Below, piece after piece: positions 5,618 through 36,722 of a stretch of 64,000 nt of DNA; position 1 is the stretch's first letter, and the number at the start of each line of letters is the position of its first letter. The stretch covers positions 1 to 64,000 of the IMG/VR virus record IMGVR_UViG_3300045600_000078. One strand, 5' to 3'. Origin of the DNA: a virus. Below the pieces are notes generated by a model, which worked only from the letters and a program-made list of their open reading frames with translations, had not been told where the DNA came from and ran no database searches. A program made the translations under genes and the position numbers.

Positions 5618-5646
5618 TTCGCAAAAGTAGCATGTACTCTAATGAG
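5618..5646 (+). promoter_or_regulatory. Tripartite promoter-like motif, copy 1
   Basis: TTCGCA aaagtag CAT gtac TCTAAT GAG. Confidence 0.55.
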
Positions 5647-5651
5647 AAAGG

Positions 5652-5680
5652 GTGGAGTACATCCACTTTATTTTTTTTAT
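5652..5680 (+). terminator. Promoter-proximal hairpin + U-tract (attenuator or 5' stabiliser candidate)
   Basis: GTGGA gtaca TCCAC followed by TTTATTTTTTTT, beginning about 6 nt after the motif. Confidence 0.45.
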
Positions 5681-5710
5681 TAATAGAATTAAATAGAAGG
5701 AGTTGATCTT

Positions 5711-5905
5711 ATGCTAACATGTATTGCTATTCTGATTGCTTGCTGTTTTATAGGACTTTTCTTTTATATTTTTGTGGGGGCATTTCGAGTACTCTTTTGG
5801 GGGGCATTGTCCTTCTGCGGGCTTCTGGTGTTTTTTGTGCCTGCTATATTTTTTGCTTTGCTGCTTATTGGATTAATTTATCTTCTTTATAAGAATAAGG
5901 AGTAA
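5711..5905 (+). CDS. Small polytopic membrane protein (64 aa)
   Basis: RBS AAGGAG; almost entirely hydrophobic sequence. Confidence 0.55.
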   Translation: MLTCIAILIACCFIGLFFYIFVGAFRVLFWGALSFCGLLVFFVPAIFFALLLIGLIYLLYKNKE

Positions 5906-5910
5906 TCTGT

Positions 5911-6219
5911 ATGCAATCAGATAAAAAACAGCCATCATCTATACTGGTACCTATTATAGGGATAATAGCAATACTTATATTTTTAGTTCTCTCTAGATTT
6001 CCTGGGAGGGAGTATGTGTCGATAGACATACTCACTTCAAATGATGCCTCACAATTAGCCGAAACTGATGGTTCAGACTATTACTCTTGGTATGATTGGG
6101 ACCGTTTTAGTGGGAAAGTATATTTGCTTACCAGAAGCCAATCTGGGTCGATATCAGTTGCCGATGCGTATGGTCCATTCGGCGGAGAACTCTTTGTTAA
6201 AGATCTGCCTAAGCAATAG
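5911..6219 (+). CDS. Membrane-anchored hypothetical protein (102 aa)
   Basis: RBS AAGGAG; N-terminal TM ILVPIIGIIAILIFLVL. Confidence 0.55.
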   Translation: MQSDKKQPSSILVPIIGIIAILIFLVLSRFPGREYVSIDILTSNDASQLAETDGSDYYSWYDWDRFSGKVYLLTRSQSGSISVADAYGPFGGELFVKDLPKQ

Positions 6220-6242
6220 GTTAATTAACTAGGAGGAATGCT

Positions 6243-6497
6243 ATGTTTTTTAGAAATTTTAGGCTTTTGCTTATTAAGGAATACAACGTTAAGATCGTTC
6301 CTCGTTCAGATTCAGTCCTTACCCCGGCACTAATTGAAACCGTGCTTAACAATAATGATATTTTCTATCAAATGTATCCTCGAGTTAGTACAAATGACTT
6401 GTACCGATGCACTATTTGGTGCAAGGAAAAGCAGTTTAATTCGTTTAAGCGAGAGCTTAGGGCTATTCATAAGAACATCACAATTAAGACAAATTAG
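6243..6497 (+). CDS. Hypothetical protein (84 aa)
   Basis: RBS AGGAGG 6 nt upstream. Confidence 0.5.
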   Translation: MFFRNFRLLLIKEYNVKIVPRSDSVLTPALIETVLNNNDIFYQMYPRVSTNDLYRCTIWCKEKQFNSFKRELRAIHKNITIKTN

Positions 6498-6573: not shown

Positions 6574-6602
6574 AACGCAATTATGACATGGCCTATAACG
6601 GA
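6574..6602 (+). promoter_or_regulatory. Tripartite promoter-like motif, copy 2
   Basis: AACGCA attatga CAT ggcc TATAAC GGA. Confidence 0.45.
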
Positions 6603-6910: not shown

Positions 6911-6930
6911 TTAGCGGATTTATCTTTAAA

Positions 6931-6967
6931 GTTAAGAGTCTAACACGGACTCTTAACTTTTATATTT
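6931..6967 (+). terminator. Terminator hairpin, conserved-loop class
   Basis: GTTAAGAGTC [TAACACG] GACTCTTAAC followed by TTTTATATTT. Confidence 0.65.
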
Positions 6968-6992: not shown

Positions 6993-7331
6993 ATGGACCC
7001 TGTTTATGTTAAATTTAACGGTAGTGACTCTTTTAAAGGCGTTTCTAACAAAGAATTTGAAGCGCGTAGAACTGCAAAGACTATAGTGTATACCACTTTG
7101 GTGTTTCTTAACTCTGATAAGAGTACAAGAACCGTAATACTATTTTCTGACAAAGATATTTTGGATTTTAATGACACGGAGTGTCTCTCACCGATTGATC
7201 AATTGGCGGCTTCTTATTTTTTGTATGTTACGAGCCTTACTGGAGCAGTATATTACAAATTTGGAAGCTATTATTGTGATAGCTATAGTCCAGAGATCTT
7301 GCTATTAGCAGGCCCATTTTCGCATAAATAG
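6993..7331 (+). CDS. Hypothetical protein (112 aa)
   Basis: Second ATG chosen because GGAG lies 8 nt upstream. The 3' end contains promoter-motif copy 3. Confidence 0.5.
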   Translation: MDPVYVKFNGSDSFKGVSNKEFEARRTAKTIVYTTLVFLNSDKSTRTVILFSDKDILDFNDTECLSPIDQLAASYFLYVTSLTGAVYYKFGSYYCDSYSPEILLLAGPFSHK

Positions 7332-7347
7332 CATGGGTTATAATGAA
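7319..7347 (+). promoter_or_regulatory. Tripartite promoter-like motif, copy 3
   Basis: TTCGCA taaatag CAT gggt TATAAT GAA; overlaps the stop codon of the upstream gene. Confidence 0.55.
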
Positions 7348-7560: not shown

Positions 7561-7589
7561 TTCGCAGGTATGGCATTCTCTATAATGAG
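7561..7589 (+). promoter_or_regulatory. Tripartite promoter-like motif, copy 4
   Basis: TTCGCA ggtatgg CAT tctc TATAAT GAG. Confidence 0.6.
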
Positions 7590-7817: not shown

Positions 7818-7849
7818 GCTATGAATTCTCACAAGGATTCATAGCTTTT
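7818..7849 (+). terminator. Terminator hairpin, conserved-loop class
   Basis: GCTATGAAT [TCTCACAAGG] ATTCATAGC followed by TTTT. Confidence 0.6.
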
Positions 7850-7876
7850 CGCAGGCATAACATCTTCTATAATGAG
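7848..7876 (+). promoter_or_regulatory. Tripartite promoter-like motif, copy 5
   Basis: TTCGCA ggcataa CAT cttc TATAAT GAG. Confidence 0.6.
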
Positions 7877-8184: not shown

Positions 8185-8195
8185 CCCCCTAAAAA

Positions 8196-8233
8196 GGTAA
8201 GAAGTCTAACAAGGCTTCTTGCCTTTTATATTT
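8196..8233 (+). terminator. Terminator hairpin, conserved-loop class
   Basis: GGTAAGAAG [TCTAACAAGG] CTTCTTGCC followed by TTTTATATTT. Confidence 0.65.
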
Positions 8234-8262
8234 ATTACAAAATTAGCACCCCCTATAATGGA
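8234..8262 (+). promoter_or_regulatory. Tripartite promoter-like motif, copy 6 (degenerate upstream half)
   Basis: ATTACA aaattag CAC cccc TATAAT GGA. Confidence 0.35.
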
Positions 8263-8526: not shown

Positions 8527-8555
8527 TTCGCGTCGTTTGCATTCCATCATATGAG
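8527..8555 (+). promoter_or_regulatory. Tripartite promoter-like motif, copy 7 (drives the non-coding cassette)
   Basis: TTCGCG tcgtttg CAT tcca TCATAT GAG. Confidence 0.45.
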
Positions 8556-8765
8556 AGGAAGAGGTGGGTGAAAAGGCTGTTTACAGCTGAATGTAACCAA
8601 CATAAACTAGTAATAGTAATCGTCTAATGGTAGGACACCGGGTAACCGGAGACGCAGTAGCTTAGTCTGAAAAACGAAAAGCGCCTAGTTTTGTGTGGAG
8701 ATGACTTCGGTTTGAACTGTGCTTAATTAGGAGAAGTTCGAAGCCTGCATCCTCTCTTATTTTTT
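8556..8765 (+). ncRNA. Candidate ~200-nt structured non-coding RNA containing a tRNA-Glu-derived D-arm block
   Basis: No ORF between the motif promoter and the U-tract. 5' GAGAGGA pairs with 3' TCCTCTC just before TTATTTTTT. Contains a CCGG-GTAA-CCGG (GNRA) hairpin and a C-TTCG-G hairpin. ATCGTCTAATGGTAGGAC nearly matches the D-arm of the tRNA-Glu at 21315. Confidence 0.45.
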
Positions 8766-8792
8766 CGCATGAACAGCATACTCTATAATGAA
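8764..8792 (+). promoter_or_regulatory. Tripartite promoter-like motif, copy 8
   Basis: TTCGCA tgaacag CAT actc TATAAT GAA. Confidence 0.6.
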
Positions 8793-9090: not shown

Positions 9091-9100
9091 TCCTTCAAAG

Positions 9101-9131
9101 TCTAGAGGTCTAACAAGGCTTCTAGATTTTT
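9101..9131 (+). terminator. Terminator hairpin, conserved-loop class
   Basis: TCTAGAGGTC [TAACAA] GGCTTCTAGA followed by TTTTT (two G.U pairs). Confidence 0.65.
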
Positions 9132-9158
9132 CGCATATTTGGCATCCCCTATAACGAA
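9130..9158 (+). promoter_or_regulatory. Tripartite promoter-like motif, copy 9
   Basis: TTCGCA tatttgg CAT cccc TATAAC GAA. Confidence 0.55.
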
Positions 9159-9462: not shown

Positions 9463-9491
9463 ATCGCGCACTTTACATGCTCTATAATGAG
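9463..9491 (+). promoter_or_regulatory. Tripartite promoter-like motif, copy 10
   Basis: ATCGCG cacttta CAT gctc TATAAT GAG. Confidence 0.55.
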
Positions 9492-9716: not shown

Positions 9717-9745
9717 TTCGCAGTTTCTACATGTACTATAATGAC
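9717..9745 (+). promoter_or_regulatory. Tripartite promoter-like motif, copy 11
   Basis: TTCGCA gtttcta CAT gtac TATAAT GAC. Confidence 0.6.
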
Positions 9746-9948: not shown

Positions 9949-9985
9949 GGTAAGAAGTCTACAAGGCTTCTCACCTTTTATATTT
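9949..9985 (+). terminator. Terminator hairpin, conserved-loop class
   Basis: GGTAAGAAG [TCTACAAGG] CTTCTCACC followed by TTTTATATTT. Confidence 0.6.
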
Positions 9986-10012
9986 CGCACACATAGCATC
10001 GTCTATAATGAG
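9984..10012 (+). promoter_or_regulatory. Tripartite promoter-like motif, copy 12
   Basis: TTCGCA cacatag CAT cgtc TATAAT GAG. Confidence 0.6.
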
Positions 10013-10235: not shown

Positions 10236-10240
10236 AAAGA

Positions 10241-10280
10241 GGTCAGAGATCTAAACAAGGTCTCTGGCCTTTTATATTTT
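10241..10280 (+). terminator. Terminator hairpin, conserved-loop class
   Basis: GGTCAGAGA [TCTAAACAAGG] TCTCTGGCC followed by TTTTATATTTT. Confidence 0.65.
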
Positions 10281-10307
10281 CGCAGAAGCGACATCCTCTC
10301 TATCGAG
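10279..10307 (+). promoter_or_regulatory. Tripartite promoter-like motif, copy 13 (weak -10-like box)
   Basis: TTCGCA gaagcga CAT cctc TCTATC GAG. Confidence 0.4.
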
Positions 10308-11439: not shown

Positions 11440-11650
11440 TAACAATCTGGCCATGCGGTTTACAATAAATCGGTCACTCTCAAAAGCATATCGTTCTACG
11501 TTTGTTACTTTTATCAAGAGTATTCCTGGCTACGTCTATAGTGAACTGGATTTCTATCTTTCTGTGACTGACTGGTTTGAGAATGGCTGGTCATATTTGT
11601 GCACGTATCAACAGTGGCTTGATAGAAATTTCCAGAGTATCGTCGCGTAG
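11399..11650 (+). CDS. Hypothetical protein; start uncertain (alternative ATG 11453)
   Basis: ORF overlaps the upstream gene by 41 nt; no clear RBS. Confidence 0.3.
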   Translation: MNTKPSLWTKEQSDNNLAMRFTINRSLSKAYRSTFVTFIKSIPGYVYSELDFYLSVTDWFENGWSYLCTYQQWLDRNFQSIVA

Positions 11651-11670
11651 TTTACATACCTTATAGTGAG
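11642..11670 (+). promoter_or_regulatory. Tripartite promoter-like motif, copy 14
   Basis: GTCGCG tagttta CAT acct TATAGT GAG. Confidence 0.5.
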
Positions 11671-11968: not shown

Positions 11969-11981
11969 TTTCCCCTCTCAG

Positions 11982-12017
11982 GGCAGGAGTCCACACGGAC
12001 TCTTGCCTTTTATTTTT
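11982..12017 (+). terminator. Terminator hairpin (loop CACACG)
   Basis: GGCAGGAGTC [CACACG] GACTCTTGCC followed by TTTTATTTTT. Confidence 0.65.
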
Positions 12018-13340: not shown

Positions 13341-13353
13341 GTAAGCCTAGAAA

Positions 13354-13395
13354 GGGCAGGGATCTAACAAGGTCTCTGCCCTTTTATATTTTTTA
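13354..13395 (+). terminator. Terminator hairpin, conserved-loop class
   Basis: GGGCAGGGA [TCTAACAAGG] TCTCTGCCC followed by TTTTATATTTTTT. Confidence 0.65.
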
Positions 13396-13415: not shown

Positions 13416-13444
13416 TTCGCAAAAATAGCATACGTTCTAATGAG
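13416..13444 (+). promoter_or_regulatory. Tripartite promoter-like motif, copy 15
   Basis: TTCGCA aaaatag CAT acgt TCTAAT GAG. Confidence 0.55.
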
Positions 13445-13734: not shown

Positions 13735-13807
13735 GGGCTCTTGGCGCAACGGTTAGCGCGGAGGACTCATAATCCTTAGGTTACAGGTTCAAATCCTGTA
13801 GGGCCCA
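13735..13807 (+). tRNA. tRNA with CAU anticodon (elongator Met or Ile2-lysidine type)
   Basis: Manual cloverleaf: GGGCTCT/AGGGCCC acceptor, GCGC D-stem, anticodon loop CTCATAA, T-arm ACAGG-TTCAAAT-CCTGT. No encoded CCA and no initiator features. Confidence 0.9.
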
Positions 13808-13847
13808 CTAAGGGTATTTTTACAAACTTCTATGAAGAGAGGTTTTT

Positions 13848-14141
13848 ATGAAGATTAAATCTATATTTAATAGACTAGTAAATCATCCGGTGAGTAAGTA
13901 TTGTGATACCCCGGCTTTAGAAAAGCTCGACAAAGCATTCTTGTTTAACGATTCTGAAATTGAGGCCATGGAGTCTCTTTATATTTCTTTGGATCGAATT
14001 GATTGGGACTGCGCCAGGGTACTTTCTGAAAGCCAGTCTGAAGAAGCTAAAGATTTAGCTAAGAAAATTCTATATATTCTTAATGGAAAAGAAGAATCAA
14101 TTCTTCATAACGAAAAAGAAGACCTTTCAATAGACGAATAA
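13848..14141 (+). CDS. Hypothetical protein (97 aa)
   Basis: RBS AGAGAGG. Confidence 0.5.
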   Translation: MKIKSIFNRLVNHPVSKYCDTPALEKLDKAFLFNDSEIEAMESLYISLDRIDWDCARVLSESQSEEAKDLAKKILYILNGKEESILHNEKEDLSIDE

Positions 14142-14261
14142 TTTATAGTTGGTGCCACCTTTCAACATGTGTGGTCAAATGTCCAGTAAGGAGCGACGGT
14201 AGGCCGGACACTACTGAAGCATAGAGGAAACAGCCAACGTTATATTTTAAGGAAGGCAATT

Positions 14262-14708
14262 ATGTCTTATGATGTATTCTCAAAAGATGATCTAAGTTCA
14301 ATTAACAACATGTCAAAAGAAGAGCTTTTAGAAGCCCATAAACGTATTGATGGGGTAGAACATTCTGGAAACGATTTGGAAGCCATTGTAGACAGTTACA
14401 TTTGTCTGGTTAAGGATCTTATTTCCGCGAAAAAAGAGGTAATTGATTTAATAAAGACTGAGCATGGGAGTTTCTCGGTCCCTCTTGATGCGGACGGCAT
14501 TCCTTGCTATCCAGGTGAAGAAATGCGTGACGACGCTGGAAACATATTTGTTTGCCTTGGACTAGGCTTTCAGAACGAAAACCAGCCAGAGATAACTGAG
14601 CTATATTGGCGAGAGAACAATGGATTCGGTAAACTAGTTATTAGCACGGCGGCTATTTGTCATCATATTTCAAATGAGCAAGCTTCTAAAACGGAAGAAC
14701 AAAAGTAA
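14262..14708 (+). CDS. Hypothetical protein, CYxGD-domain paralog 2
   Basis: LDADGIPCYPGEEMRDDAGNIFVCLGLG; RBS AAGGAAGG. Confidence 0.55.
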   Translation: MSYDVFSKDDLSSINNMSKEELLEAHKRIDGVEHSGNDLEAIVDSYICLVKDLISAKKEVIDLIKTEHGSFSVPLDADGIPCYPGEEMRDDAGNIFVCLGLGFQNENQPEITELYWRENNGFGKLVISTAAICHHISNEQASKTEEQK

Positions 14709-14734
14709 TAAAAACAGGGCAAGGGGAGCTTTTT

Positions 14735-15241
14735 ATGGATATTCTAGATGCCGATGGTGTATCATGCTATATTGGTGATTCAGTATTTACCGATGACGGC
14801 GAAGAATTTGATATTTCAGAAATATTTATTAGAGATCGTAGACCAACGTCTATTCGATCTAAGAACGGAAAAATTAAAGCAAACGCAGATACCGTGCACC
14901 ACATGTCAAAGGGCATGAGAATTCTATATTTGTCTCCGTTAGACTATCTTTCTCTTAGCGAAGAAGACCAACGTCAATTTACTGATGATGTCCAGGAAGC
15001 TTATGATAAAATCGCAGATCGATATTTCGGGATCGATGATTCGTTACAGGAATCGACTAAACAAATAGCCAAACCTCCTGCGGAAGATAAATCAAATAAA
15101 AGTCGTTCTGATAAACTGAAGGATCGCAATGCTGAGATTGTTAAAGACTATGCTGAAGGATATTCTTACGCGGAGCTCATGAAAAAGTATTCTCTTTCTG
15201 AGCCATCTATTAGCACTATTATTAGAAAGGCACAACAATGA
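14735..15241 (+). CDS. CYxGD-domain paralog 3 with C-terminal HTH
   Basis: LDADGVSCYIGDSVFTDDGEEFDISEIF; C-terminus YSYAELMKKYSLSEPSISTIIRKA resembles sigma-r4/HTH. Confidence 0.55.
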   Translation: MDILDADGVSCYIGDSVFTDDGEEFDISEIFIRDRRPTSIRSKNGKIKANADTVHHMSKGMRILYLSPLDYLSLSEEDQRQFTDDVQEAYDKIADRYFGIDDSLQESTKQIAKPPAEDKSNKSRSDKLKDRNAEIVKDYAEGYSYAELMKKYSLSEPSISTIIRKAQQ

Positions 15242-15426
15242 ACAACATGCTTTCTTGGCTTACTATATTTCTTGATGGCCTCCTTTTCGGTTCATGTGCC
15301 TATTGGCTCGTGGTTCTTTACTCGAACTTTGGGGGGCTTGCCTGGTTCTATCTGATAATAACTTTTGGCTTTTTTATATTTAGTCTTCTGTGCCTTGTGC
15401 GAGACATTCGAGCTCGAAATGTCTAG
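15238..15426 (+). CDS. Small two-TM membrane protein (62 aa)
   Basis: ATGA overlap with the upstream gene; hydrophobic throughout. Confidence 0.45.
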   Translation: MNNMLSWLTIFLDGLLFGSCAYWLVVLYSNFGGLAWFYLIITFGFFIFSLLCLVRDIRARNV

Positions 15427-15643
15427 TCTACTTCCAAAGGGAATAGGCGTCCCTGATTCGAATGGCGTTATGTGCTATATTGGTGATCAGGTTGTTTCGG
15501 ATAGAGGTGATGTATTTGTCGTTGATGAGTTTAGAATAACTGATGTTGATATTTTGTTCATTTCGTACAACCCTAGCTATGTTAAAATTGTGAACTATCT
15601 GAACGTTACCAAAAAAGATGAACCAGATGGGTGGGGAATGTAG
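15419..15643 (+). CDS. CYxGD-domain paralog 4 (start uncertain)
   Basis: PDSNGVMCYIGDQVVSDRGDVFVVDEF; no clear RBS. Confidence 0.4.
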   Translation: MSSLLPKGIGVPDSNGVMCYIGDQVVSDRGDVFVVDEFRITDVDILFISYNPSYVKIVNYLNVTKKDEPDGWGM

Positions 15644-15659
15644 TCTTCGAGGAGAACCC

Positions 15660-16094
15660 ATGGTAGAAAACGAAGTAGATAAGTGTGAAAACGAAACAGT
15701 AAAGTATGATGTTTACAAGCAGGATCTAGCAATAGATATTCAGCATCGCAATGGGCATACTTATAAAGATCTTGCTCAAGAGTATGACTGCTCGACCGCG
15801 AAGATTGCTTCAGTGTGTAAAAAGGTAGCCCGCCATCGAGCACGAGCTGCTAGAAAGAAACGAATTTATAAAATCGCTAAGAGTAAGGCTTTTAGTAAAG
15901 CCCAGATGGCAAAAGATTACTTCATCGACGAGAAACTTCTTGTCGAGATCATTCAAGAGCAGGACGTAGTTGCCAAGTATCTTGATCATGTTCCAGTAAA
16001 CGTTATTTTGCATCACTATCATCTCTCATTAGATGACTTTGAGCGTATCCTGTATCTGAATGTGGTAACTTCATATTTTATCAGCGGATCTTGA
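15660..16094 (+). CDS. Putative HTH DNA-binding protein (144 aa)
   Basis: GAGGAG 5 nt upstream of ATG 15660; HTYKDLAQEYDCSTAKIASVCKKV is HTH-like. Confidence 0.5.
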   Translation: MVENEVDKCENETVKYDVYKQDLAIDIQHRNGHTYKDLAQEYDCSTAKIASVCKKVARHRARAARKKRIYKIAKSKAFSKAQMAKDYFIDEKLLVEIIQEQDVVAKYLDHVPVNVILHHYHLSLDDFERILYLNVVTSYFISGS

Positions 16095-16097
16095 TTA

Positions 16098-16126
16098 TCC
16101 GCACGAATAGCATCCCCCCTAATGGA
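16098..16126 (+). promoter_or_regulatory. Tripartite promoter-like motif, copy 16 (weaker)
   Basis: TCCGCA cgaatag CAT cccc CCTAAT GGA. Confidence 0.4.
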
Positions 16127-16217
16127 AAGGTAAATGTTTAACAACACAATGTTAAGATCGGAAATGATTCCGAGTTTACTTACCATCAAAATTTTTATAT
16201 TTTAGAAAGGAGGAGCC

Positions 16218-16571
16218 ATGGATTCTATACTTTTGTATGTGTGCGGTACTTTTATATTGTTCTTTCTTATTAATCTTTCAATCCGAGAAACCATACGTTT
16301 TTATGTTGAAACAATGACCGACAGGAAATCCGGTGTCCCCGGAAAAGATTATGGCCATTGCTCAGAATGCTATTATCGAAGTGATCCAATTTATCGTCGG
16401 TTTGGTGTTTTGTATCTTTGCCAAAACCGAGATTCATCATATTTCGGAGAGCCTTGCCAGACCCAGGCCGTAGGATGTGAGGGGCATTTTAAGCAAAAGC
16501 CTACGGAGACTCCAGATTTCAATTGGGATTATCTTCCCTTTACAGATGATTCAAAAGAAAAGAACGACTGA
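16218..16571 (+). CDS. Membrane-anchored Cys-rich protein (117 aa)
   Basis: RBS AAGGAGGAG; N-terminal TM; HCSECYY...C..C motifs. Confidence 0.5.
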   Translation: MDSILLYVCGTFILFFLINLSIRETIRFYVETMTDRKSGVPGKDYGHCSECYYRSDPIYRRFGVLYLCQNRDSSYFGEPCQTQAVGCEGHFKQKPTETPDFNWDYLPFTDDSKEKND

Positions 16572-16587
16572 CTTTAGTTATATTTAT

Positions 16588-16671
16588 GGGGGCGTGGCGG
16601 AACGGCAGACGCGGGAGACTTAAAATCTTTTGTCGCAAGACGTGTGGGTTCGAATCCCACCGCCCCTACCA
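16588..16671 (+). tRNA. tRNA-Leu(UAA), type II, CCA encoded
   Basis: GGGGGCG/CGCCCCT acceptor (G1.U72), anticodon loop CTTAAAA, 13-nt variable arm, T-arm GTGGG-TTCGAAT-CCCAC, then ACCA. Confidence 0.9.
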
Positions 16672-16680
16672 ACTATTTTG

Positions 16681-16706
16681 ACTCTGTTAACAGAGTTTAT
16701 ATTTTT
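16681..16706 (+). terminator. Terminator hairpin after tRNA-Leu
   Basis: ACTCTG TTAA CAGAGT followed by TTATATTTTT. Confidence 0.5.
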
Positions 16707-16734
16707 AAACATTAAAGTCTATACTGGAGGAATC

Positions 16735-17085
16735 ATGAACGTTGGGTATACGCCGTTTTCTAATCATGATACGTTTATCGCTCGGGTAGCTCATACCAAG
16801 CCTGGGTATTTTCAATGGTGCACGATTTACCCACAAAACGATGGAACAGCTATATTTGAAACCAGAGAAGATGGGGCCAGAACTCAGATTAGAGTTCCTG
16901 TGAATTCGGTTAAGAATATTTTCTCAATCTCTTCTGAGTTGTTTAAGGCTTCCATTCGGCGTCTGGAACTTGAAGACCTTGACCCTGTAGAGTCATCAGA
17001 TATTTTGACTTGGAAACAGGTAAATAACAAAAAGCATATTTCAGACATGATTCCTTTTGGTCATAGATTCATAACTATGTGGTAA
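16735..17085 (+). CDS. Hypothetical protein (116 aa)
   Basis: TGGAGG 5 nt upstream of ATG 16735. The track start at 16630 lies inside tRNA-Leu. Confidence 0.5.
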   Translation: MNVGYTPFSNHDTFIARVAHTKPGYFQWCTIYPQNDGTAIFETREDGARTQIRVPVNSVKNIFSISSELFKASIRRLELEDLDPVESSDILTWKQVNNKKHISDMIPFGHRFITMW

Positions 17086-17097
17086 TGTGGTTTTACT

Positions 17098-17127
17098 GAG
17101 AAGAGAAACCTCTTCTCTTTTATATTT
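17098..17127 (+). terminator. Intrinsic terminator
   Basis: GAGAAGAG aaac CTCTTCTC followed by TTTTATATTT. Confidence 0.6.
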
Positions 17128-17156
17128 GAAAAGAGAGCGTTGAAAGGAGCACTATT

Positions 17157-17252
17157 ATGAATTGTGGCAAGTATGGTATCTTTACTGCTGGTGTTTGCTT
17201 TATGGTCGGTGCTTATGCTTGGGTGTGCTTTTACGCAGTAGATCATCGATAG
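17157..17252 (+). CDS. Micro membrane protein (31 aa, not in ORF track)
   Basis: Own translation MNCGKYGIFTAGVCFMVGAYAWVCFYAVDHR; RBS AAAGGAG; bracketed by two terminators. Confidence 0.3.
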   Translation: MNCGKYGIFTAGVCFMVGAYAWVCFYAVDHR

Positions 17253-17262
17253 AATAGTAATT

Positions 17263-17297
17263 GGAGGGGTCGAATTATAGGCCCCTCCTTTTATATT
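17263..17297 (+). terminator. Intrinsic terminator
   Basis: GGAGGGG tcgaattatagg CCCCTCC followed by TTTTATATT. Confidence 0.6.
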
Positions 17298-17313
17298 ACA
17301 AAAAGGAGATTTT

Positions 17314-17799
17314 ATGGGCAGCCCTGTTAGCAAGAACATTAACTTTATTAAAAAACCAGCTATGATTATTTCAGGTGTCGTGCTCATTACTATTTATACC
17401 GGAGCTATTTGGTGGGTTTCTCGTAAGCAAGCTATTCAATTCTGTGCATCGATGTTTACTGAGATTATGAACCAGTATTTGCCCACGAAAGATACTGGTT
17501 CCGGAATAGATAACGCTAAGTCAAACGAACTATCTGAAGAGGATAAAGATATTATTAATAGCTTCTCTTTTCCTCTGTTTCGTGAGAAAAAAGATGCCGA
17601 TCGTCTTCTTAAAGCTTGCAAAGATTATATTTCTATTTACGGTGTGGTCACTATTGGCGACATCTATAACATTCTTGGCGACGATGCCCCGTACGAAGCC
17701 TTCTGCTATGGATGGACACAAAACAACTTGTTTATGGTGAGTACCAAGCCAAATGGCTATTACTTTGTTGATGCCGGGGATCCTTCTTACATTGATTAA
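17314..17799 (+). CDS. N-terminally anchored hypothetical protein (161 aa)
   Basis: RBS AAAGGAG; TM MIISGVVLITIYTGAIWWV. Confidence 0.55.
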   Translation: MGSPVSKNINFIKKPAMIISGVVLITIYTGAIWWVSRKQAIQFCASMFTEIMNQYLPTKDTGSGIDNAKSNELSEEDKDIINSFSFPLFREKKDADRLLKACKDYISIYGVVTIGDIYNILGDDAPYEAFCYGWTQNNLFMVSTKPNGYYFVDAGDPSYID

Positions 17800-17810
17800 G
17801 GAGTTTAGGA

Positions 17811-18158
17811 ATGGCATACGTATATTTTGCAAAGACTGAGTGCAACAAAGTCCTTCCAGAACCCTATAATGAAGTAACTCACCATATTGTGATTGATAGT
17901 GACCGCCGCATTAAGATCGAGGCAATCTCATATTCTGATAAAGATCCTTCAAGCATCGACATTCACATCGGGCCAAATGAAGAAGTAGTTGTTGTATACA
18001 GCCTTCTTAATGACGAAGTAATGCGCGCCCATGGAACAGACATACTGTGTTCTGGGTATACTGACATGCTTCATATTTGCAAAGAGTATTCAACAGAGAT
18101 CGATGACGCAGTTAATGCCTGGTATAATCGGTTCTATTACAAAAAAGATGGGCGATAA
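17811..18158 (+). CDS. Hypothetical protein (115 aa); its 3' end is duplicated at 18798-18882
   Basis: RBS AAGGAG. Confidence 0.55.
   Translation: MAYVYFAKTECNKVLPEPYNEVTHHIVIDSDRRIKIEAISYSDKDPSSIDIHIGPNEEVVVVYSLLNDEVMRAHGTDILCSGYTDMLHICKEYSTEIDDAVNAWYNRFYYKKDGR
18066..18152 (+). repeat. Direct repeat, left copy (coding: C-terminus of 17811..18158)
   Basis: About 80% identical to 18798-18882; the 23-nt core cgcagttaatgcctggtataatc is identical. Confidence 0.8.
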
Positions 18159-18159
18159 C

Positions 18160-18780
18160 ATGAAACATAAAAACAATTCTTATTCACGTCCTAGCATTAA
18201 GTTTGGATATACTATGATGAAACCATTCCCGTTCAATTATCTTTACATTATTCCAGGAAGAACTTCCATATTTACGACTGGAAATGGAAAGTTCTACAAT
18301 CTTGGAAAGTTCTTAAGAGTTGACAAAAACATTAATCCTGATTCTGGCTCAGAGTCTGTTCAATCCGGAATTATATTTGAAAAGACGGTGGAGGATACTC
18401 TCTTCGAAGGCTACAGTGCCCAAAACGAGTTGACAGATGCTATCCTCGGTATTGATCAGATAATTGTAAATGGAGACTTTACCAAGGTTATATTTAAGGA
18501 TGGCACCTCGTCATCCGTTCGCCGAAAGCATGCTGATCCAAATAAGCCAGGGGATACAGAGGACAAAGACGATCGTGAAGTCGCAGTGCTGTATTGTCTT
18601 ATGGAGCACGCTATTCCTGGATTCAAGACCTCAATTCGCAAGAAGATTGCTCTTGCTGAGGAAAAGAAATGTATTTCTGACAAAAATAGGCTTGATCGTT
18701 CAGCAAGAAAGGCCGCTAAAAAGGATGTTTCTAAAAAGAGTAAAAAGAACTATACAAAAACTAAGAATGTCCACCGATAA
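18160..18780 (+). CDS. Hypothetical protein with basic C-terminal tail (206 aa); flanked by ~85-bp direct repeats
   Basis: ATG 18160 lies right after the upstream stop. Segment VIFKDGTSSSVRRKHADP..EVAVLYCLMEHAIPGF resembles a common phage domain of unknown function. Confidence 0.55.
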   Translation: MKHKNNSYSRPSIKFGYTMMKPFPFNYLYIIPGRTSIFTTGNGKFYNLGKFLRVDKNINPDSGSESVQSGIIFEKTVEDTLFEGYSAQNELTDAILGIDQIIVNGDFTKVIFKDGTSSSVRRKHADPNKPGDTEDKDDREVAVLYCLMEHAIPGFKTSIRKKIALAEEKKCISDKNRLDRSARKAAKKDVSKKSKKNYTKTKNVHR

Positions 18781-18797
18781 AGATAAACAATACTTCG

Positions 18798-18882
18798 ATG
18801 CTTCATATTCTTAAAAGTATTCGACTAAGATCGATTCCGCAGTTAATGCCTGGTATAATCAGTTTTATCATAAAATAGATGG
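18798..18882 (+). repeat. Direct repeat, right copy (decayed, in-frame stop)
   Basis: Reads DASYS*KYSTKIDSAVNAWYNQFYHKIDGG against MLHICKEYSTEIDDAVNAWYNRFYYKKDGR. Confidence 0.8.
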
Positions 18883-18891
18883 AGGGTACAG

Positions 18892-19317
18892 ATGATTAAG
18901 ATGACGAACAAGCAAGATAATGACAACGAGTCGTATATCAATCAGCTTGAGCACATGGTAAATATACTCAAAGCGCAACTCAATGATGCCCGGATGCCAG
19001 ACTACGCCGACGAGCCGATGCTAACTAAGCACGAGATGTACGACAGGATCCAGGTGCTTCTTGCCGAACGAGACAAGCTTGAGAAAGACCTCGTCTCTCT
19101 TGTCAGTTCATATTCCGACTCATGGGATAAGGTCGATGCGGACTTAGAGAAGGGTGCCTGCGCGTACTTTTCCCACTCCGGAAAAGACTGTCACGGGTGT
19201 CCTGCATATTGCACTGAAAAGTGCTCGTGCGAGGGATACATGGCTCGTGACCTCGTGCGTCGCTGCAAGGAACTCGCTGGGGTTACGGACGATTCCCCAT
19301 GTTCTTCTAAAAACTAA
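18892..19317 (+). CDS. Coiled-coil protein with Cys-rich C-terminus (141 aa)
   Basis: RBS GGAGGG; CHGCPAYCTEKCSCEGY. Confidence 0.55.
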   Translation: MIKMTNKQDNDNESYINQLEHMVNILKAQLNDARMPDYADEPMLTKHEMYDRIQVLLAERDKLEKDLVSLVSSYSDSWDKVDADLEKGACAYFSHSGKDCHGCPAYCTEKCSCEGYMARDLVRRCKELAGVTDDSPCSSKN

Positions 19318-19326
19318 GGATTTTTT

Positions 19327-20010
19327 ATGATACGTATAGACAATACCACCGAGTATGGATTCTGCGAAGCCATCCGAGGTATGCGAAACCCCATGAATAG
19401 TTGGGATAAGAGCGATACAAAAATATCAGAAAAAACATATACGGTTAATAGTGAAACGTATATGCATACACAAATACCAACCTGGCCATCAATAGGACCA
19501 AAAGATATAGATCTCATGCTTCGTCTTCGTAAAGCGGGGGCCGACCATCGAAAGTATCTTCGTATGATCGTTGTGTGGACTGATATTACTGCCCCGCTAT
19601 ATTGGTGGAAAGAGTTCGACACTTATAAGGTCGGAACCGTCGCTGATAGCTGTAGCACAATGCATAAGATCGCGGCCAAAGAGTTTACCATGGATGACTT
19701 TAGTCACGATCATCTTGCCCCATCTACAGTTATTAAATCAGATACCAAGAGTCCGATTGAGGTGCTTTCTGATACTATATCGGTTCTTAATAACTCGAGA
19801 AAAAAGTATCTTGAGACCAAGGACAAGGCCTATTGGTGGGAGATGATTCAGCTTCTTCCTTCAAGCTACAATCAGAATCGAACTGTTGAGCTGAACTACG
19901 AGGTTCTTACAAACATATATTTTGCTCGTAAGAATCATAAGCTTGACGAGTGGCATGTGTTCTGTGATTGGATTGAGAAGCTTCCATATTCTCAGATCAT
20001 TACTCTTTAA
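19327..20010 (+). CDS. ThyX-like (flavin-dependent thymidylate synthase-like) protein with a divergent signature motif
   Basis: GADHRKYLRMIVVWTDITAPLYWWKEFDTYKVGTVADSCSTMH parallels the ThyX core GH.S.LEH..F.F.I.G.SR....E..RHR..S....S.RY, but the RHR motif is replaced. Confidence 0.4.
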   Translation: MIRIDNTTEYGFCEAIRGMRNPMNSWDKSDTKISEKTYTVNSETYMHTQIPTWPSIGPKDIDLMLRLRKAGADHRKYLRMIVVWTDITAPLYWWKEFDTYKVGTVADSCSTMHKIAAKEFTMDDFSHDHLAPSTVIKSDTKSPIEVLSDTISVLNNSRKKYLETKDKAYWWEMIQLLPSSYNQNRTVELNYEVLTNIYFARKNHKLDEWHVFCDWIEKLPYSQIITL

Positions 20011-20048
20011 TAATTTTGGCAGTTCATAGTCAGGAGAAGAGGGTTGCT

Positions 20049-20345
20049 ATGAGCAAAATTAGATCTTCGGTTAAGTCTCGGAGACTTGTGCGTAGGAACC
20101 GAACGTGGTTCCGCGCTCTATATCTTACTGGTATGACCAGTACGGAACTTAAACAGATTGTCGATGGCTACGGCTTATTCGAATCGGCTATTTCTAAAGT
20201 AAAGAAGTCTCTTTTTGATTTCGGTGTTGAGTTAATGGATTACTGCAATCCTATATTTAGCAATCTGGAAGTCACTCTATCCGAGATCTCTGAAGACGAT
20301 ATACGTCAAGCAACCGATTCATTAAACAAGGAAGCGAGGATCTAA
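20049..20345 (+). CDS. Hypothetical basic protein (98 aa)
   Basis: RBS AGAGGG 5 nt upstream of the internal ATG. Confidence 0.45.
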   Translation: MSKIRSSVKSRRLVRRNRTWFRALYLTGMTSTELKQIVDGYGLFESAISKVKKSLFDFGVELMDYCNPIFSNLEVTLSEISEDDIRQATDSLNKEARI

Positions 20346-20683
20346 TGCCCATATTTCCGCCATTTGACACATTCCGCAAGACAATCATCTCTATAAAGCC
20401 ATCCGATGGAGAACGGTACGATAGGCTCATTGATATTCGTAGTAATGACGACCGAATTCTTGTTCGCGGAAGAGCCAGCAGAACTTGTTCCGATTCGGCT
20501 ATCAGTATTTCTGTAGATAAGAATGTTTATATTTACAGGCTCGATACTGGTGCCATCTATGACATGCAGCATCCGAGAGTAAATGCTGAGCTAAAGGGGA
20601 AGCTTGCTGCTCGCGTTAACACCGCTCGTATTGCTTGGTACTGCCGCGACTTCATCACACCTGCTGACGCCTCAGTCAAGTAA
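20345..20683 (+). CDS. Hypothetical protein (112 aa)
   Basis: TAATG overlap with the upstream gene. Confidence 0.5.
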   Translation: MPIFPPFDTFRKTIISIKPSDGERYDRLIDIRSNDDRILVRGRASRTCSDSAISISVDKNVYIYRLDTGAIYDMQHPRVNAELKGKLAARVNTARIAWYCRDFITPADASVK

Positions 20684-20696
20684 TTTTATATTCTAG

Positions 20697-20773
20697 GCCT
20701 CGGTAACTCAATTGGTTAGAGTAGTGGACTTTTAATCCAAAGGTTGTGGGTTCGAATCCCACCCGGAGCACCA
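20697..20773 (+). tRNA. tRNA-Lys(UUU) copy 1, CCA encoded, C3.A70 acceptor mismatch
   Basis: GCCTCGG/CCGGAGC acceptor, anticodon loop CTTTTAA, T-arm GTGGG-TTCGAAT-CCCAC. Confidence 0.85.
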
Positions 20774-20798
20774 TCTTCGTTTCACAAGTTATATTTAG

Positions 20799-20875
20799 GC
20801 CTCGGTAACTCAATTGGTTAGAGTAGTGGACTTTTAATCCAAAGGTTGTGGGTTCGAATCCCACCCGGGGCACCA
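20799..20875 (+). tRNA. tRNA-Lys(UUU) copy 2, CCA encoded
   Basis: Identical to copy 1 except G70 restores the C3-G70 pair (CCGGGGC). Confidence 0.9.
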
Positions 20876-23735: not shown

Positions 23736-23764
23736 TTCGCGTAATTTACATACCCTATAATGAG
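23736..23764 (+). promoter_or_regulatory. Tripartite promoter-like motif, copy 17
   Basis: TTCGCG taattta CAT accc TATAAT GAG. Confidence 0.6.
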
Positions 23765-25157: not shown

Positions 25158-25469
25158 ATGGAAACAACAAAGGCTTCTACTACCCATAAGAGTACTATTA
25201 ATGAGCTTATCTATAAAACCCGTACATGGTATTCAGCTAATAAAGACTTTATAAAGAGGCACGCTAAGATCGGTGCACTTGTTGGCTTTGCCGTCTCAGT
25301 TGGATATTCTCTTGGCAAAAAGACGCATACCGGAGCTATTACAAAGGTAGTTGAGTCACCTGTTACCAATGGGGCATACGCTGTGTTCTTTACGAAAGAG
25401 GGCGTGCCGACAGTAGCTGCAGAGCTTAGCTCGGTGCAGTCTGTAGACTCCCCAGATATTTTTATGTAA
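25158..25469 (+). CDS. Hypothetical membrane-associated protein (103 aa)
   Basis: AAGAGGAA upstream of ATG 25158; TM IGALVGFAVSVGYSLG. Confidence 0.5.
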   Translation: METTKASTTHKSTINELIYKTRTWYSANKDFIKRHAKIGALVGFAVSVGYSLGKKTHTGAITKVVESPVTNGAYAVFFTKEGVPTVAAELSSVQSVDSPDIFM

Positions 25470-25496
25470 CGCGAAAAGAACATGCCCCATAACGAG
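25468..25496 (+). promoter_or_regulatory. Tripartite promoter-like motif, copy 18, followed by a 5' hairpin + U-tract
   Basis: AACGCG aaaagaa CAT gccc CATAAC GAG, then GAGAGGCGCA atagg TGCGTTCTCTC TTATATTTTT. Confidence 0.45.
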
Positions 25497-25550
25497 AGGC
25501 GCAATAGGTGCGTTCTCTCTTATATTTTTCTCTCATGAAAGGAGAGAAGT

Positions 25551-26391: not shown

Positions 26392-26420
26392 TTCGCACAA
26401 CGAGCATGCCATTTAATGAG
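26392..26420 (+). promoter_or_regulatory. Tripartite promoter-like motif, copy 19, followed by a 5' hairpin + U-tract
   Basis: TTCGCA caacgag CAT gcca TTTAAT GAG, then GAGAGAT aatagg ATCTCTC TTTT. Confidence 0.55.
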
Positions 26421-26455
26421 AGATAATAGGATCTCTCTTTTGAAAGGAGATATTT

Positions 26456-34716: not shown

Positions 34717-34718
34717 TC

Positions 34719-35243
34719 ATGCCTGGAAAGAATTATGGTGTTACTAACAACATCAACATCGAGAATGCTTACATTATGTTCCGTAACTTCTCTGGCAAGG
34801 AGAGCAAGTTTAATCCGGCTGGTCGTAGGAACTTCTGTGTTCGTCTTGATGACCCGAAGCTGGTTAAGCAGCTTGAGGCGGATGGCTGGAACGTTCGATA
34901 TTTGAAGGCTCGCGAAGAGGGCGACGAGGATACTCCATATCTTCAGGTTGCAGTTTCTTATGGCAAGGGTCGTCCTCCTAAAATCACGCTGATCACTTCA
35001 CACGGCCAGACGCTTCTGGATGAGAGCACGGTTGACACCCTCGACTGGGCAGAGATCAAGACCGCTGACCTCATTATTAATCCGTACAATTGGGAAGTGA
35101 ATGGCAAGAAGGGCGTTAAGGCATATTTGAATGCCCTCTATGTGACCATTGTTGAGGATGCTTTTGCCCAGAAGTATGCTGATATGGCTCCCCGCACTGT
35201 GGCTCCGGATGTTTCCGTCTCAGATGAGGATATTCCGTTCTAG
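34719..35243 (+). CDS. Single-stranded DNA-binding protein
   Basis: Sits between the polymerase and the helicase. The acidic C-terminal tip SVSDEDIPF mimics the bacterial SSB tip DDDIPF. The OB-like N-terminal pattern is recognised only loosely. Confidence 0.6.
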   Translation: MPGKNYGVTNNINIENAYIMFRNFSGKESKFNPAGRRNFCVRLDDPKLVKQLEADGWNVRYLKAREEGDEDTPYLQVAVSYGKGRPPKITLITSHGQTLLDESTVDTLDWAEIKTADLIINPYNWEVNGKKGVKAYLNALYVTIVEDAFAQKYADMAPRTVAPDVSVSDEDIPF

Positions 35244-35279
35244 TTTAAATGCCCCTGAGAGGCACGGAGAGCCGTTCTA

Positions 35280-35330
35280 AGACCCTGTTATGGGTATTCG
35301 TGTGTAGATGCCCATAATAGGGTCTTCTTT
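35280..35330 (+). terminator. Terminator with 15-bp stem
   Basis: AGACCCTGTTATGGG ... CCCATAATAGGGTCT followed by TCTTT. Confidence 0.55.
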
Positions 35331-35367
35331 GGGCAGAGATGCCCATATTTTAGAAAGGAGGGGCTCC

Positions 35368-36681
35368 ATGAACTTGTATGATTATCAGATTGATGCTATA
35401 GACAGACTGAGTACTGGGTCAATACTTTACGGCGGGGTTGGTTCAGGAAAGTCCCGAACGTCTTTAGCATATTTTTACACCAAAGTGTGCGGGGGAGAAC
35501 TTTCTTTAAACGGAAAGGGCAAGTCTGTAATTCCATCAAAGCCTAGGCCGCTTTATATTATTACCACAGCAAGAAAAAGAGAAGATTTAAGCTGGGAAAA
35601 AGAATGCTCAGTGTTTGGGCTCTCGTCTGACAAAACAAAAAGTGTTCTTAGCATTGACGTAGTGATTGACAGTTGGAATTGCATTAAAAAGTACAAAGAC
35701 GTCACTGACGCATTCTTCATATTTGACGAGCAACGAGTTGTTGGCAGCGGGGCTTGGGTTAAGGCGTTCTTAAAGATTGCTAAAAGTAATGATTGGATCA
35801 TTCTGAGCGCAACCCCTGGAGATACGTGGACAGATTATATTCCGGTGTTCATAGCGAACGGGTTCTATAAGAACAGAACAGATTTTGTTCGCCAACACGT
35901 CGTGTATAGTCGCTACACTAAGTATCCAAAGGTCGATCGATATTTGAATACGGGCAGACTAATTCGAGAACAACGAGAAGTTCTTGTTCCAATGTATTAC
36001 GAGAAGAAGAATACTCAGCATTCAATAAAAGTTAATGTTCCTTATGACAAACAGCTATATTCTGATACACAAAAGATCAAGTGGAACATCTATGAAGATC
36101 GGCCTTGCCAGAATGCAGCAGAGTTTTGCTTTGTTCTAAGACGAATAGTTAATGAGTCACATTACAGAATCGATGCTATGACGGAGTTGCTGCAATCCAA
36201 CGACCGTTTGGTCATATTTTACAACTTCAATTATGAGCTTGACTTGCTTAAGAAGATTTGTGATAGCCTTGGGGTTGAGTATGGACAATGGAATGGGCAT
36301 CAGCATGATCTGATTCCTAATACTGACCGTTGGGCATATTTGGTTCAATACACTGCTGGGGCGGAAGGATGGAACTGCATAGAGACAAATGCTATGGTGT
36401 TCTATTCTTTGAACTATTCATACAAGGCAACTAAGCAAGCAGCTGGAAGAATAGATCGTCTCAATTCTCCATATTCTGATCTATACTATTACTATTTGGA
36501 AACTAATTCCCCAATAGACAAAGCAATAGGCATGTCGTTGCATAAGAAGAAGAACTTTAATTACGTTAAGTTCACGTCTAAGTTTACTGATCAATTCGAC
36601 AAAAAAGACACAAATAAACAAAACGTCATACAGCAACCTGAAAAGCGAGAAAACGGTGAGAAGAAAGACCAGGTAGAATAG
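35368..36681 (+). CDS. SF2 (DEAD/SNF2-like) helicase
   Basis: YDYQIDAI, motif I GGVGSGKS, motif II IFDEQ, motif III SATPG, motif VI QAAGRIDR. AGGAGG upstream of ATG 35368. Confidence 0.8.
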   Translation: MNLYDYQIDAIDRLSTGSILYGGVGSGKSRTSLAYFYTKVCGGELSLNGKGKSVIPSKPRPLYIITTARKREDLSWEKECSVFGLSSDKTKSVLSIDVVIDSWNCIKKYKDVTDAFFIFDEQRVVGSGAWVKAFLKIAKSNDWIILSATPGDTWTDYIPVFIANGFYKNRTDFVRQHVVYSRYTKYPKVDRYLNTGRLIREQREVLVPMYYEKKNTQHSIKVNVPYDKQLYSDTQKIKWNIYEDRPCQNAAEFCFVLRRIVNESHYRIDAMTELLQSNDRLVIFYNFNYELDLLKKICDSLGVEYGQWNGHQHDLIPNTDRWAYLVQYTAGAEGWNCIETNAMVFYSLNYSYKATKQAAGRIDRLNSPYSDLYYYYLETNSPIDKAIGMSLHKKKNFNYVKFTSKFTDQFDKKDTNKQNVIQQPEKRENGEKKDQVE

Positions 36682-36693
36682 GCCATATTTTGG

Positions 36694-36722
36694 TTCGCGT
36701 AGAATACATGGTGCCTAATGAA
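36694..36722 (+). promoter_or_regulatory. Tripartite promoter-like motif, copy 20 (upstream of the nuclease/RNAP-candidate operon)
   Basis: TTCGCG tagaata CAT ggtg CCTAAT GAA, followed by an imperfect hairpin and TATTTTT. Confidence 0.5.

Follow-up and report, generated by a model that had tools for sequence, protein, structure and literature searches.

A stretch of virus DNA of 64,000 nucleotides (nt), positions 1 to 64,000 of the IMG/VR record IMGVR_UViG_3300045600_000078 and referred to here as the window, contains twenty copies of a tripartite motif, TTCGCR-N7-CAT-N4-TATAAT (R, purine; N, any base), that are, as judged from sequence comparison, promoters of early and replication genes. 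The motif probably constitutes (at a probability of about 65%) a promoter family specific to a phage-encoded two-barrel RNA polymerase (RNAP), with the TATAAT-like hexamer situated at -6 to -1. Its assignment as the cognate promoter of this polymerase draws on the conservation of the blocks and their spacing across bacterial phyla, on the tie between the motif and the polymerase gene, and on a hexamer that ignores the rules of sigma-70 promoters.

The motif and its distribution among phages

Within the window TTCGCR-N7-CAT-N4-TATAAT is matched 14 times with at most two mismatches, always on the + strand, compared with a mean of 0.32 matches and a maximum of 3 in shuffled sequence. A weight matrix trained on these 14 matches returns 20 + strand sites, neither more nor fewer, within 5618-36722, the next-best scores being 6.4 bits on the + strand and at most 7.9 bits on the - strand, and it finds no site in 1-5.6 kb, where the lysis genes are located, or in 37.8-64 kb. 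An earlier reading of the letters alone (the sequence-only reading) had reported twenty + strand copies at fixed spacing and none in the late module, and both statements are reproduced by the matrix. The weakest copies, at 6574, 8234 and 8527, score 14-18 bits; as the best scores in shuffled sequence reach 14.8, these three copies rest mainly on their context.

The consensus of the 20 copies, all intergenic and on the same strand, is tTCGCR-N6-RCAT-N4-TATAAT-G. The C-G-C columns are conserved in 19, 19 and 20 copies and the purine that follows in all 20, whereas the R-C-A-T columns are conserved in 20, 20, 20 and 19. The hexamer columns read T17 A13 T19 A19 A18 T16, and the hexamer is followed by G in every copy, then by A (17) and G (12). 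TTCGCR is matched exactly by 14/20 copies and TATAAT by no more than 9/20; the rigidity of the motif thus resides in its spacing and not in each of its letters. Both spacers are of constant length in all 20 copies while their letters vary freely, and there is no dyad symmetry. Overall the motif amounts to about 30 bits over 32 columns, and high information content combined with fixed spacing is what would be expected of a promoter specific to a phage RNAP.

A nucleotide search of GenBank phages with the window gave no match, and relatives were found only by way of the polymerase protein. The motif was found in every polymerase-bearing relative examined. Arthrobacter phage Circum, with 45% guanine plus cytosine (G+C), has nine copies of TCGCGTAAATTACAnGGGnTATAAT-GA/AG, Streptomyces phage Rima (60% G+C) has six of CTCGCAAGAATTACAnGnCCTATAAT-GAG, and Gordonia phage Secretariat has ten of TTCGCAnnnATTACAyGCCyTATAAT-GAG, all three with the spacing seen in the window. 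Lactococcus phage P162 carries 12 copies of a half-motif, TTTTACATACCCTATAAT-GAA, in which a T-rich sequence stands in place of TCGCR, and the Faecalibacterium phage FP_oengus (L164) carries 13 copies of CGCG-N6-RCAN-N4-cTTTAT-GG between its positions 2286 and 27710. Almost every relative examined has a copy at a distance of 870-1000 nt upstream of its RNAP gene, where, like copy 20 of the window, it fronts an endonuclease-exonuclease-polymerase operon.

On the strength of these sequence comparisons the motif family is a diagnostic mark of one very large siphophage supercluster of Gram-positive hosts, which comprises the Arthrobacter clusters AM/AU, the Gordonia cluster DJ, the Streptomyces cluster BI, the Lactococcus 1706-like phages, FP_oengus and many uncultured phages. 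Scanning IMG/VR for the exact pattern yielded at least 119 stretches with up to nine same-strand copies each and a G+C content of 30-58%, and hallmark genes of the supercluster were encountered, within the few kb fetched, in 62 of 80 such stretches. FP_oengus carries an integrase, so that the supercluster includes a temperate member, which must start its polymerase from the prophage.

The polymerase candidate and the hexamer

The operon behind copy 20 ends in a gene for a protein of 904 amino acids (aa). The match of the protein to phrog_4291 ("RNA-dependent RNA polymerase") extends along all of its length (E = 0), and there is a weak match to the Pfam RdRP family. The helix-turn-helix (HTH) at its C terminus stands at the Pfam cut-off for Sigma70_r4_2, and two more HTH-like stretches, both sub-threshold, are located within the N-terminal 120 residues, for which a PDB sequence profile search with the N-terminal domain gave generic HTH matches only. 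The catalytic DxDGD loop is present as ADFDGD (A514-D-F-D-G-D519) and is invariant in 30 homologues. The AlphaFold model has a mean predicted local distance difference test score (pLDDT) of 77, and in a Foldseek search of the PDB its best matches were to QDE-1 (7y7t_B, E 1.5e-8; 5fsw_B, 8.7e-7) and RDR2 (1.3e-4), followed by beta-prime/Rpb1 chains, the large subunits of bacterial, archaeal, eukaryotic and giant-virus RNAPs, at low template-modelling scores (0.28) that confine the fold match to the core. The model thus presents the protein as a candidate two-barrel, QDE-1-like RNAP of the double-psi beta-barrel type. Membership in the YonO family by sequence is ruled out (hhalign probability 2%).

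The polymerase family counts at least 7999 proteins at E <= 1e-10, that is at least about 8000 members in public data. In GenBank, 250 phage records contain a member that is 37-51% identical to the window protein, from phages of Arthrobacter, Gordonia, Streptomyces, Rhodococcus, Microbacterium, Curtobacterium, Bifidobacterium, Lactococcus and Faecalibacterium. The family is nearly absent from bacteria, with two metagenome-bin contigs among the 185,579 genomes of a GTDB scan. The protein was named a putative RNA polymerase and a signature of an Actinobacteria/Firmicutes phage supercluster by Koert et al. (bioRxiv 10.1101/842583), where promoters are not discussed. An N-terminal peptide, LxHYGTPRHSGRYPWGSG (residues 13-35, window 37636-37704), is invariant in homologues but, by prediction, disordered (pLDDT < 50); it may serve as a signal for docking or packaging, a role bearing on how the first polymerase reaches the cell.

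Factors of the sigma-70 family depend on the A at position 2 of the -10 hexamer (A-11) and on the T at position 6. In the window these two are the weakest hexamer columns, with A in 13/20 and T in 16/20 copies. Among 445 pooled motif sites, single hexamer mismatches fall most often at position 2 (33/108), nearly as often at position 5 (32) and least at position 3 (2), and in 97% of the sites a purine follows the hexamer. As the IMG/VR stretches were chosen for one exact copy of TATAATGAG, the share of perfect hexamers is inflated in the pooled set, the mismatch spectrum being less affected. The RNAP-operon promoter, conserved in position, has to function in every phage, yet its hexamers are CCTAAT (window), TCTAAT (relatives L016 and L032), TTTAAT (Rima), TGTAAT (L027) and TTTTAT (FP_oengus). 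Throughout its 13 copies FP_oengus keeps CGCG-N6-RCAN-N4 but has cTTTAT-GG, compared with TATAAT-GA elsewhere, which indicates that the third block drifts with the phage lineage and does not follow a universal host consensus.

The position of the transcription start can be narrowed by what lies downstream. Three transfer RNA (tRNA) genes, in FP_oengus and in the relatives L098 and L089, begin 2-5 nt past the hexamer; all pass the Rfam threshold for tRNA, at 42-48 bits, and the Rfam search returned tRNAs only. A start about 7 nt downstream of the hexamer would cut into their acceptor stems. Leader hairpins in copies 18 and 19 and in the relative L005 begin at the first base after the hexamer. 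Together with the conserved purine, the tRNA genes and hairpins point to that purine as the likely start, which would place the hexamer at about -6 to -1.

Other attributes of sigma-70 promoters are likewise missing. Instead of a TTGACA-like element at 17 +/- 1 bp, all 20 copies, like those of the relatives, have a single conserved upstream hexamer at a distance of 14 bp, and the TG of an extended -10 (TGn) is at the required position in 0/20 copies. The T-rich stretch at the would-be -35 position is the U-tract of the upstream terminator, several terminator-like hairpins ending right before a motif copy. Canonical sigma-70 promoters are not enriched in 1-20 kb (60 found, 52 expected) or in 36-46 kb (20 found, 24 expected). 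Taken together, the sequence evidence suggests that the hexamer is not a -10 element of the sigma-70 kind. The sequence-only reading had regarded the geometry as unlike a -35/-10 pair, had noted the lack of a TG extension, had likened the motif to a phage-RNAP promoter or a fixed factor-binding site, and had placed copy 20 ahead of an operon ending in an RNAP candidate. All of this is supported: the 14-nt spacing is constant here and in relatives from other host genera, the hexamer profile is the inverse of that of a sigma-70 -10, and the motif precedes the RNAP operon in nearly all relatives examined. The likeness to phage-RNAP promoters gains further support from cTTTAT in FP_oengus, from the tRNA genes that abut the hexamer and from the two-barrel fold with ADFDGD.

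The most likely reader of the motif is this single-polypeptide two-barrel RNAP of about 900 aa, the signature gene of the supercluster. Its fused HTH modules would dock on the duplex blocks TCGCR and RCAT, separated by roughly one turn of the helix, melting would take place in the A/T-rich hexamer at about -6 to -1, and transcription would be initiated at the invariant purine directly past the hexamer. Each small early gene would represent a cassette consisting of a promoter, a leader of about 30 nt with a ribosome-binding site, an open reading frame (ORF) and a hairpin terminator, with the terminator U-tract of one cassette abutting the TTCGCR of the next. With the polymerase gene itself behind one motif promoter, at the right genome end, the system would be self-reinforcing. 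A more specific version, put forward tentatively, is that the protein is a self-sufficient, "sigma-fused" two-barrel RNAP whose three HTH modules each read one promoter block, and that in some lineages the hexamer mimics the host -10 so that the host enzyme primes the circuit.

Competing explanations and known systems

Several observations weigh against a dedicated phage polymerase as the reader. The hexamer consensus of most lineages coincides exactly with that of the universal sigma-70 -10, which is suspicious if the reader is not a sigma factor, and the pooled site set is biased towards perfect hexamers. HTH sequences and motif variants do not co-vary; in particular, co-variation of the HTH2 recognition helix with the TCGCR block was considered and rejected, as lineages with SPNTVK-type helices keep an intact TCGCA. 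P162 lacks the TCGCR block, yet its enzyme keeps all three HTH modules. The three tRNAs abutting the hexamer all have odd anticodon loops according to ARAGORN (2-nt, 4-nt, or anticodon ATT). Since the RNAP gene lies behind a motif copy, a bootstrap step is needed in which the first polymerase comes from elsewhere; it could be carried in the virion or result from weak host initiation at hexamers equal to TATAAT, although exact TATAAT, the possible site of such leaky initiation, is absent from FP_oengus. Finally, YonO of the Bacillus prophage SPbeta, the only phage enzyme of this general type to have been characterised in a Gram-positive host, transcribes late genes (one late operon) and not early ones (PMC5467207).

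The consensus TATAAT in most lineages and the role of YonO as a late-gene polymerase would both be accommodated if the host sigma-A RNAP read the hexamer as a -10 while a phage factor on TCGCR/RCAT replaced the -35 contact, a sigma appropriation similar to that of T4 middle promoters, with the two-barrel enzyme left to serve the late genes. The T4 MotA box is located at approximately the position of the motif's upstream block, and such a factor could be supplied by the HTH modules of the roughly 900-aa protein, or else by a small activator. HTH proteins with a weak likeness to Mor are encoded at two loci, 14735-15241 and 15618-16094, and the search for late promoters turned up none calling for another explanation. 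This arrangement, the leading alternative, is nevertheless unlikely, because hexamer position 2, which is indispensable for melting of the sigma-70 type, is the most variable and is not A in the RNAP-operon promoters of six lineages, because FP_oengus has cTTTAT throughout, and because tRNA genes begin 2-5 nt past the hexamer. The factor would moreover be needed before any early gene is expressed, and Pfam scans of 29 ORFs, with many small ORFs outside the scan, gave no MotA- or AsiA-like protein.

With TATAAT in 9/20 copies, the elements could also be taken as plain, strong host promoters that need nothing but a -10, their conserved flanks being inherited cassette sequence without a reader of its own. 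Promoters dominated by the -10 are common in Actinobacteria, and as leaders and terminator loops are conserved too, whole cassettes could spread by duplication. However, the blocks and their spacing are kept where polymerases are only 37-51% identical and flanking genes are unrelated, and across hosts of two phyla with G+C contents of 30-60%, which argues for selection on the blocks themselves; the spacers between them vary freely, and the hexamer variants are incompatible with sigma-70, making this account improbable. Least probable is that the elements are not promoters but repressor operators, replication or packaging sites, or elements acting at the RNA level. Leader hairpins and conserved 5' leaders could indicate the last of these, but the strict strand bias, the fixed place 25-38 nt before start codons and right after terminators, the copies in front of tRNA genes and the lack of dyad symmetry all speak for promoters.

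Among known systems, T7-type promoters (-17 to +6) resemble the window motif in their high information content, fixed geometry, confinement to phage and association with a phage polymerase encoded within the same circuit, as well as in an A/T-rich stretch directly upstream of a purine, which is the start in T7 and the likely start here. They differ in that the T7 enzyme has a right-hand fold, whereas the window polymerase is of the two-barrel (beta/beta-prime-like, QDE-1-like) type with HTH modules, and in that the window motif is tripartite, longer (about -26 to +1) and unrelated in sequence. YonO and the window protein are both single polypeptides (about 100 kDa) with a catalytic motif of the multi-subunit RNAP type, encoded by siphophages of Gram-positive hosts. 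The YonO promoter, however, is undefined, no motif-like sequence was found upstream of yonK (the SPbeta YonO promoter region), and fused HTH modules have not been reported for YonO.

A precedent is provided by phage P23-45, whose single-subunit RNAPs of the two-barrel type rely on conserved motifs located upstream of pre-early and early genes (bioRxiv 10.1101/2022.12.01.518664). As in the window system, both P23-45 enzymes (the non-virion RNAP gp64 and the virion RNAP gp96, with GC-rich and AT-rich promoters) are two-barrel single-subunit phage polymerases, and motif presence among relatives tracks the polymerase gene; the host (Thermus) and the motifs are different. P23-45 solves the bootstrap by a polymerase fused to the tape measure protein, whereas the window's tape measure protein has tape-measure matches only. 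T4 middle promoters, with a MotA box at about -30 and a sigma-70 -10, share with the window motif a TATAAT-like -10 and a conserved box 12-14 bp upstream that replaces the -35. They require host sigma-70, AsiA and MotA, in contrast to the scanned window ORFs, which offer no counterpart of the last two, and the window hexamer tolerates loss of the A-11 equivalent and is wholly replaced in FP_oengus. Ordinary sigma-70/sigma-A promoters share the hexamer consensus TATAAT but not the 14-bp spacing, the lack of TG, the inverted hexamer profile, the invariant next base or, in relatives, the tRNA genes 2-5 nt downstream.

Gene context and significance

All window genes are on the + strand, and all copies of the motif lie upstream of early or replication genes (Table 1). 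The distance from the hexamer end to the start codon is 25-38 nt in most copies, and most starts have a good ribosome-binding site; in six copies (1, 13, 16, 18, 19 and 20) it is 52-94 nt, and the leaders are longer and structured. No ORF with a ribosome-binding site begins within 200 nt of copy 7 (8527-8760), where Rfam is also empty, and this copy may drive a non-coding RNA.

Table 1. Motif copies and other features of the window, with tRNA genes that abut the hexamer in related phages
Feature	Position	Strand	Remarks
Copy 1	5618..5646	+	TTCGCA..GCAT..TCTAAT-GAG; first promoter past lysis genes; leader hairpin and T8 downstream
Copy 2	6574..6602	+	AACGCA..ACAT..TATAAC-GGA; weak, 14.2 bits
Copy 3	7319..7347	+	Pattern and weight matrix
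Copy 4	7561..7589	+	Pattern and weight matrix
Copy 5	7848..7876	+	Pattern and weight matrix
Copy 6	8234..8262	+	ATTACA..GCAC..TATAAT-GGA; lacks CGC block; weak, 15.1 bits
Copy 7	8527..8555	+	TTCGCG..GCAT..TCATAT-GAG; no ORF <=200 nt downstream
Copy 8	8764..8792	+	Pattern and weight matrix
Copy 9	9130..9158	+	Pattern and weight matrix
Copy 10	9463..9491	+	Pattern and weight matrix
Copy 11	9717..9745	+	Pattern and weight matrix
Copy 12	9984..10012	+	Pattern and weight matrix
Copy 13	10279..10307	+	Hexamer TCTATC; structured leader, 93 nt
Copy 14	11642..11670	+	Pattern and weight matrix
Copy 15	13416..13444	+	Hexamer TCTAAT
Copy 16	16098..16126	+	Hexamer CCTAAT; leader 94 nt
Copy 17	23736..23764	+	TTCGCGTAATTTACATACCCTATAATGAG; near-identical to consensus of Arthrobacter phage Circum
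Copy 18	25468..25496	+	Hexamer CATAAC; upstream of DUF6353 gene; leader hairpin from first post-hexamer base
Copy 19	26392..26420	+	Hexamer TTTAAT; leader hairpin from first post-hexamer base
Copy 20	36694..36722	+	Hexamer CCTAAT; predicted promoter of endonuclease-exonuclease-RNAP operon; position kept in nearly all relatives examined
Endonuclease gene	36772..37062	+	First in RNAP operon; start taken at ATG after AAAGGAGG ribosome-binding site
Cas4-like exonuclease gene	36992..37600	+	
Two-barrel RNAP candidate, single-subunit, 904 aa	37600..40314	+	Two N-terminal HTH modules, one C-terminal sigma-region-4-like HTH
Terminator-like hairpin and T-run	40320..40368	+	Directly after RNAP gene; read from sequence
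Joined cos site	41460..41492	.	GCATCGCCGGCCT then CCTAAAAAAAGCTCCGGGGG, matching the right and left physical ends of Circum
Tail and lysis genes	25-4071		DUF285 repeat protein, GH25+CHAP endolysin
Small early genes	5.6-13 kb		In array
Replication genes	13-37 kb		D5-like primase/helicase, single-stranded DNA-binding protein, helicase
RNAP operon region	36.7-40.3 kb		Endonuclease, Cas4-like exonuclease, 904-aa protein
A/T-rich region	40.3-41.7 kb		About 1.4 kb, mostly non-coding; one small conserved ORF (40832-41089)
Structural module	41.7-64 kb		Second lysin, large terminase, portal, fused protease-capsid gene, tape measure protein
tRNA gene abutting hexamer, L164	2936-3005		
tRNA gene abutting hexamer, L098	1408-1477		
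tRNA gene abutting hexamer, L089	574-649	-	

Terminator-like hairpins are enriched in 1-20 kb (32 observed, 14 expected), and several end right before a motif copy. The terminators of early cassettes have a common loop (yCTAACAAGg, CACACGg) on variable stems, at 6928-6960, 8192-8227, 9097-9130, 9953-9971, 10237-10273, 11980-12009 and 13350-13385 of the window and at L036 23192 and 23928, and similar loops are encountered in Gordonia phage Secretariat; the conserved loop could be a signal for sequence-specific termination or RNA processing. A hairpin followed by a U-run directly past the hexamer is present in copies 1, 18, 19 and 20 (5649-5669, 25494-25519, 26418-26437 and 36732-36750) and in the polymerase-operon promoter of most relatives (for example, L005 437-467 and L164 27715-27750), and could act as an attenuator or 5' stabiliser. 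Five tRNA genes (Met, Leu, two Lys and Glu) are dispersed over 13735-21389 in the early and middle region.

The window includes a joined cos site and so spans the genome ends, which puts the RNAP operon at the right end. From the sequence match, the packaging site appears to be conserved between the window phage and the distantly related Circum, and the cos junction was assembled in two independent metagenome contigs. Adjoining cos is a long, A/T-rich, mostly non-coding stretch (40380-41460) with three ATATAATATAAAA repeats (about 40727-40775), long A-runs (41320-41400) and a G8/C7 palindrome (41425-41459); the small ORF in this region is homologous to the last gene of Circum. The large terminase (45329-47089) is 72-77% identical to those of distant relatives including Circum, a degree of conservation that no other gene compared comes near, the polymerase (about 50%) included. 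The endolysin has its best matches, over part of the protein, in Actinomyces/Schaalia and Bifidobacterium phages (44-53% identity).

A search for late promoters gave nothing convincing: 40-64 kb holds no motif copy or half-motif, no conserved TATAAT-like element was found between cos and the large terminase gene in eight relatives, and the only canonical sigma-70 match was CTGACA-16-TAAAAT at 41385, within the A/T-rich stretch. Three CTAATAG repeats at 41620-41670, a short way upstream of the first late ORF, are similar to the motif's 3' end (CTAAT-AG) without its RCAT and TCGCR blocks and are a candidate late control element. Possible late-gene activators are the two proteins encoded at 14735-15241 and 15618-16094, whose similarity to the Mor transcription activator family is weak and below threshold (E 8e-4 and 6e-3).

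Promoters specific to a phage polymerase are already known from T7, from N4 and for the two P23-45 enzymes. What is new is the promoter described here, its tripartite form, in which one block looks like the host -10, its link to a very abundant family of HTH-fused two-barrel enzymes and its conservation across phyla. No earlier description of the motif was found in the literature, searches with literal sequence strings included; the literature covered does not extend to the Rhodococcus-phage paper of Summer et al. (2011) and the 2008 paper on phage 1706, where an earlier mention is possible.

The polymerase family defines a supercluster that spans Actinobacteria and Firmicutes, and neither its activity nor its promoters were described in the literature searched. 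A 29-bp candidate cognate promoter that is found supercluster-wide makes the function of the enzyme testable in cultivable SEA-PHAGES phages and their hosts. If the assignment is correct, it would show how a single-polypeptide relative of the cellular RNA polymerases finds its promoters when no separate sigma factor takes part, would account for the arrangement of these phages' genes in cassettes and would provide a new orthogonal transcription system for synthetic biology in Gram-positive hosts. Should the polymerase prove to be sigma-fused in the sense outlined above, it would represent a new mode of promoter recognition for two-barrel polymerases and, with its promoter, a new orthogonal pair that functions in Actinobacteria as well as Firmicutes.

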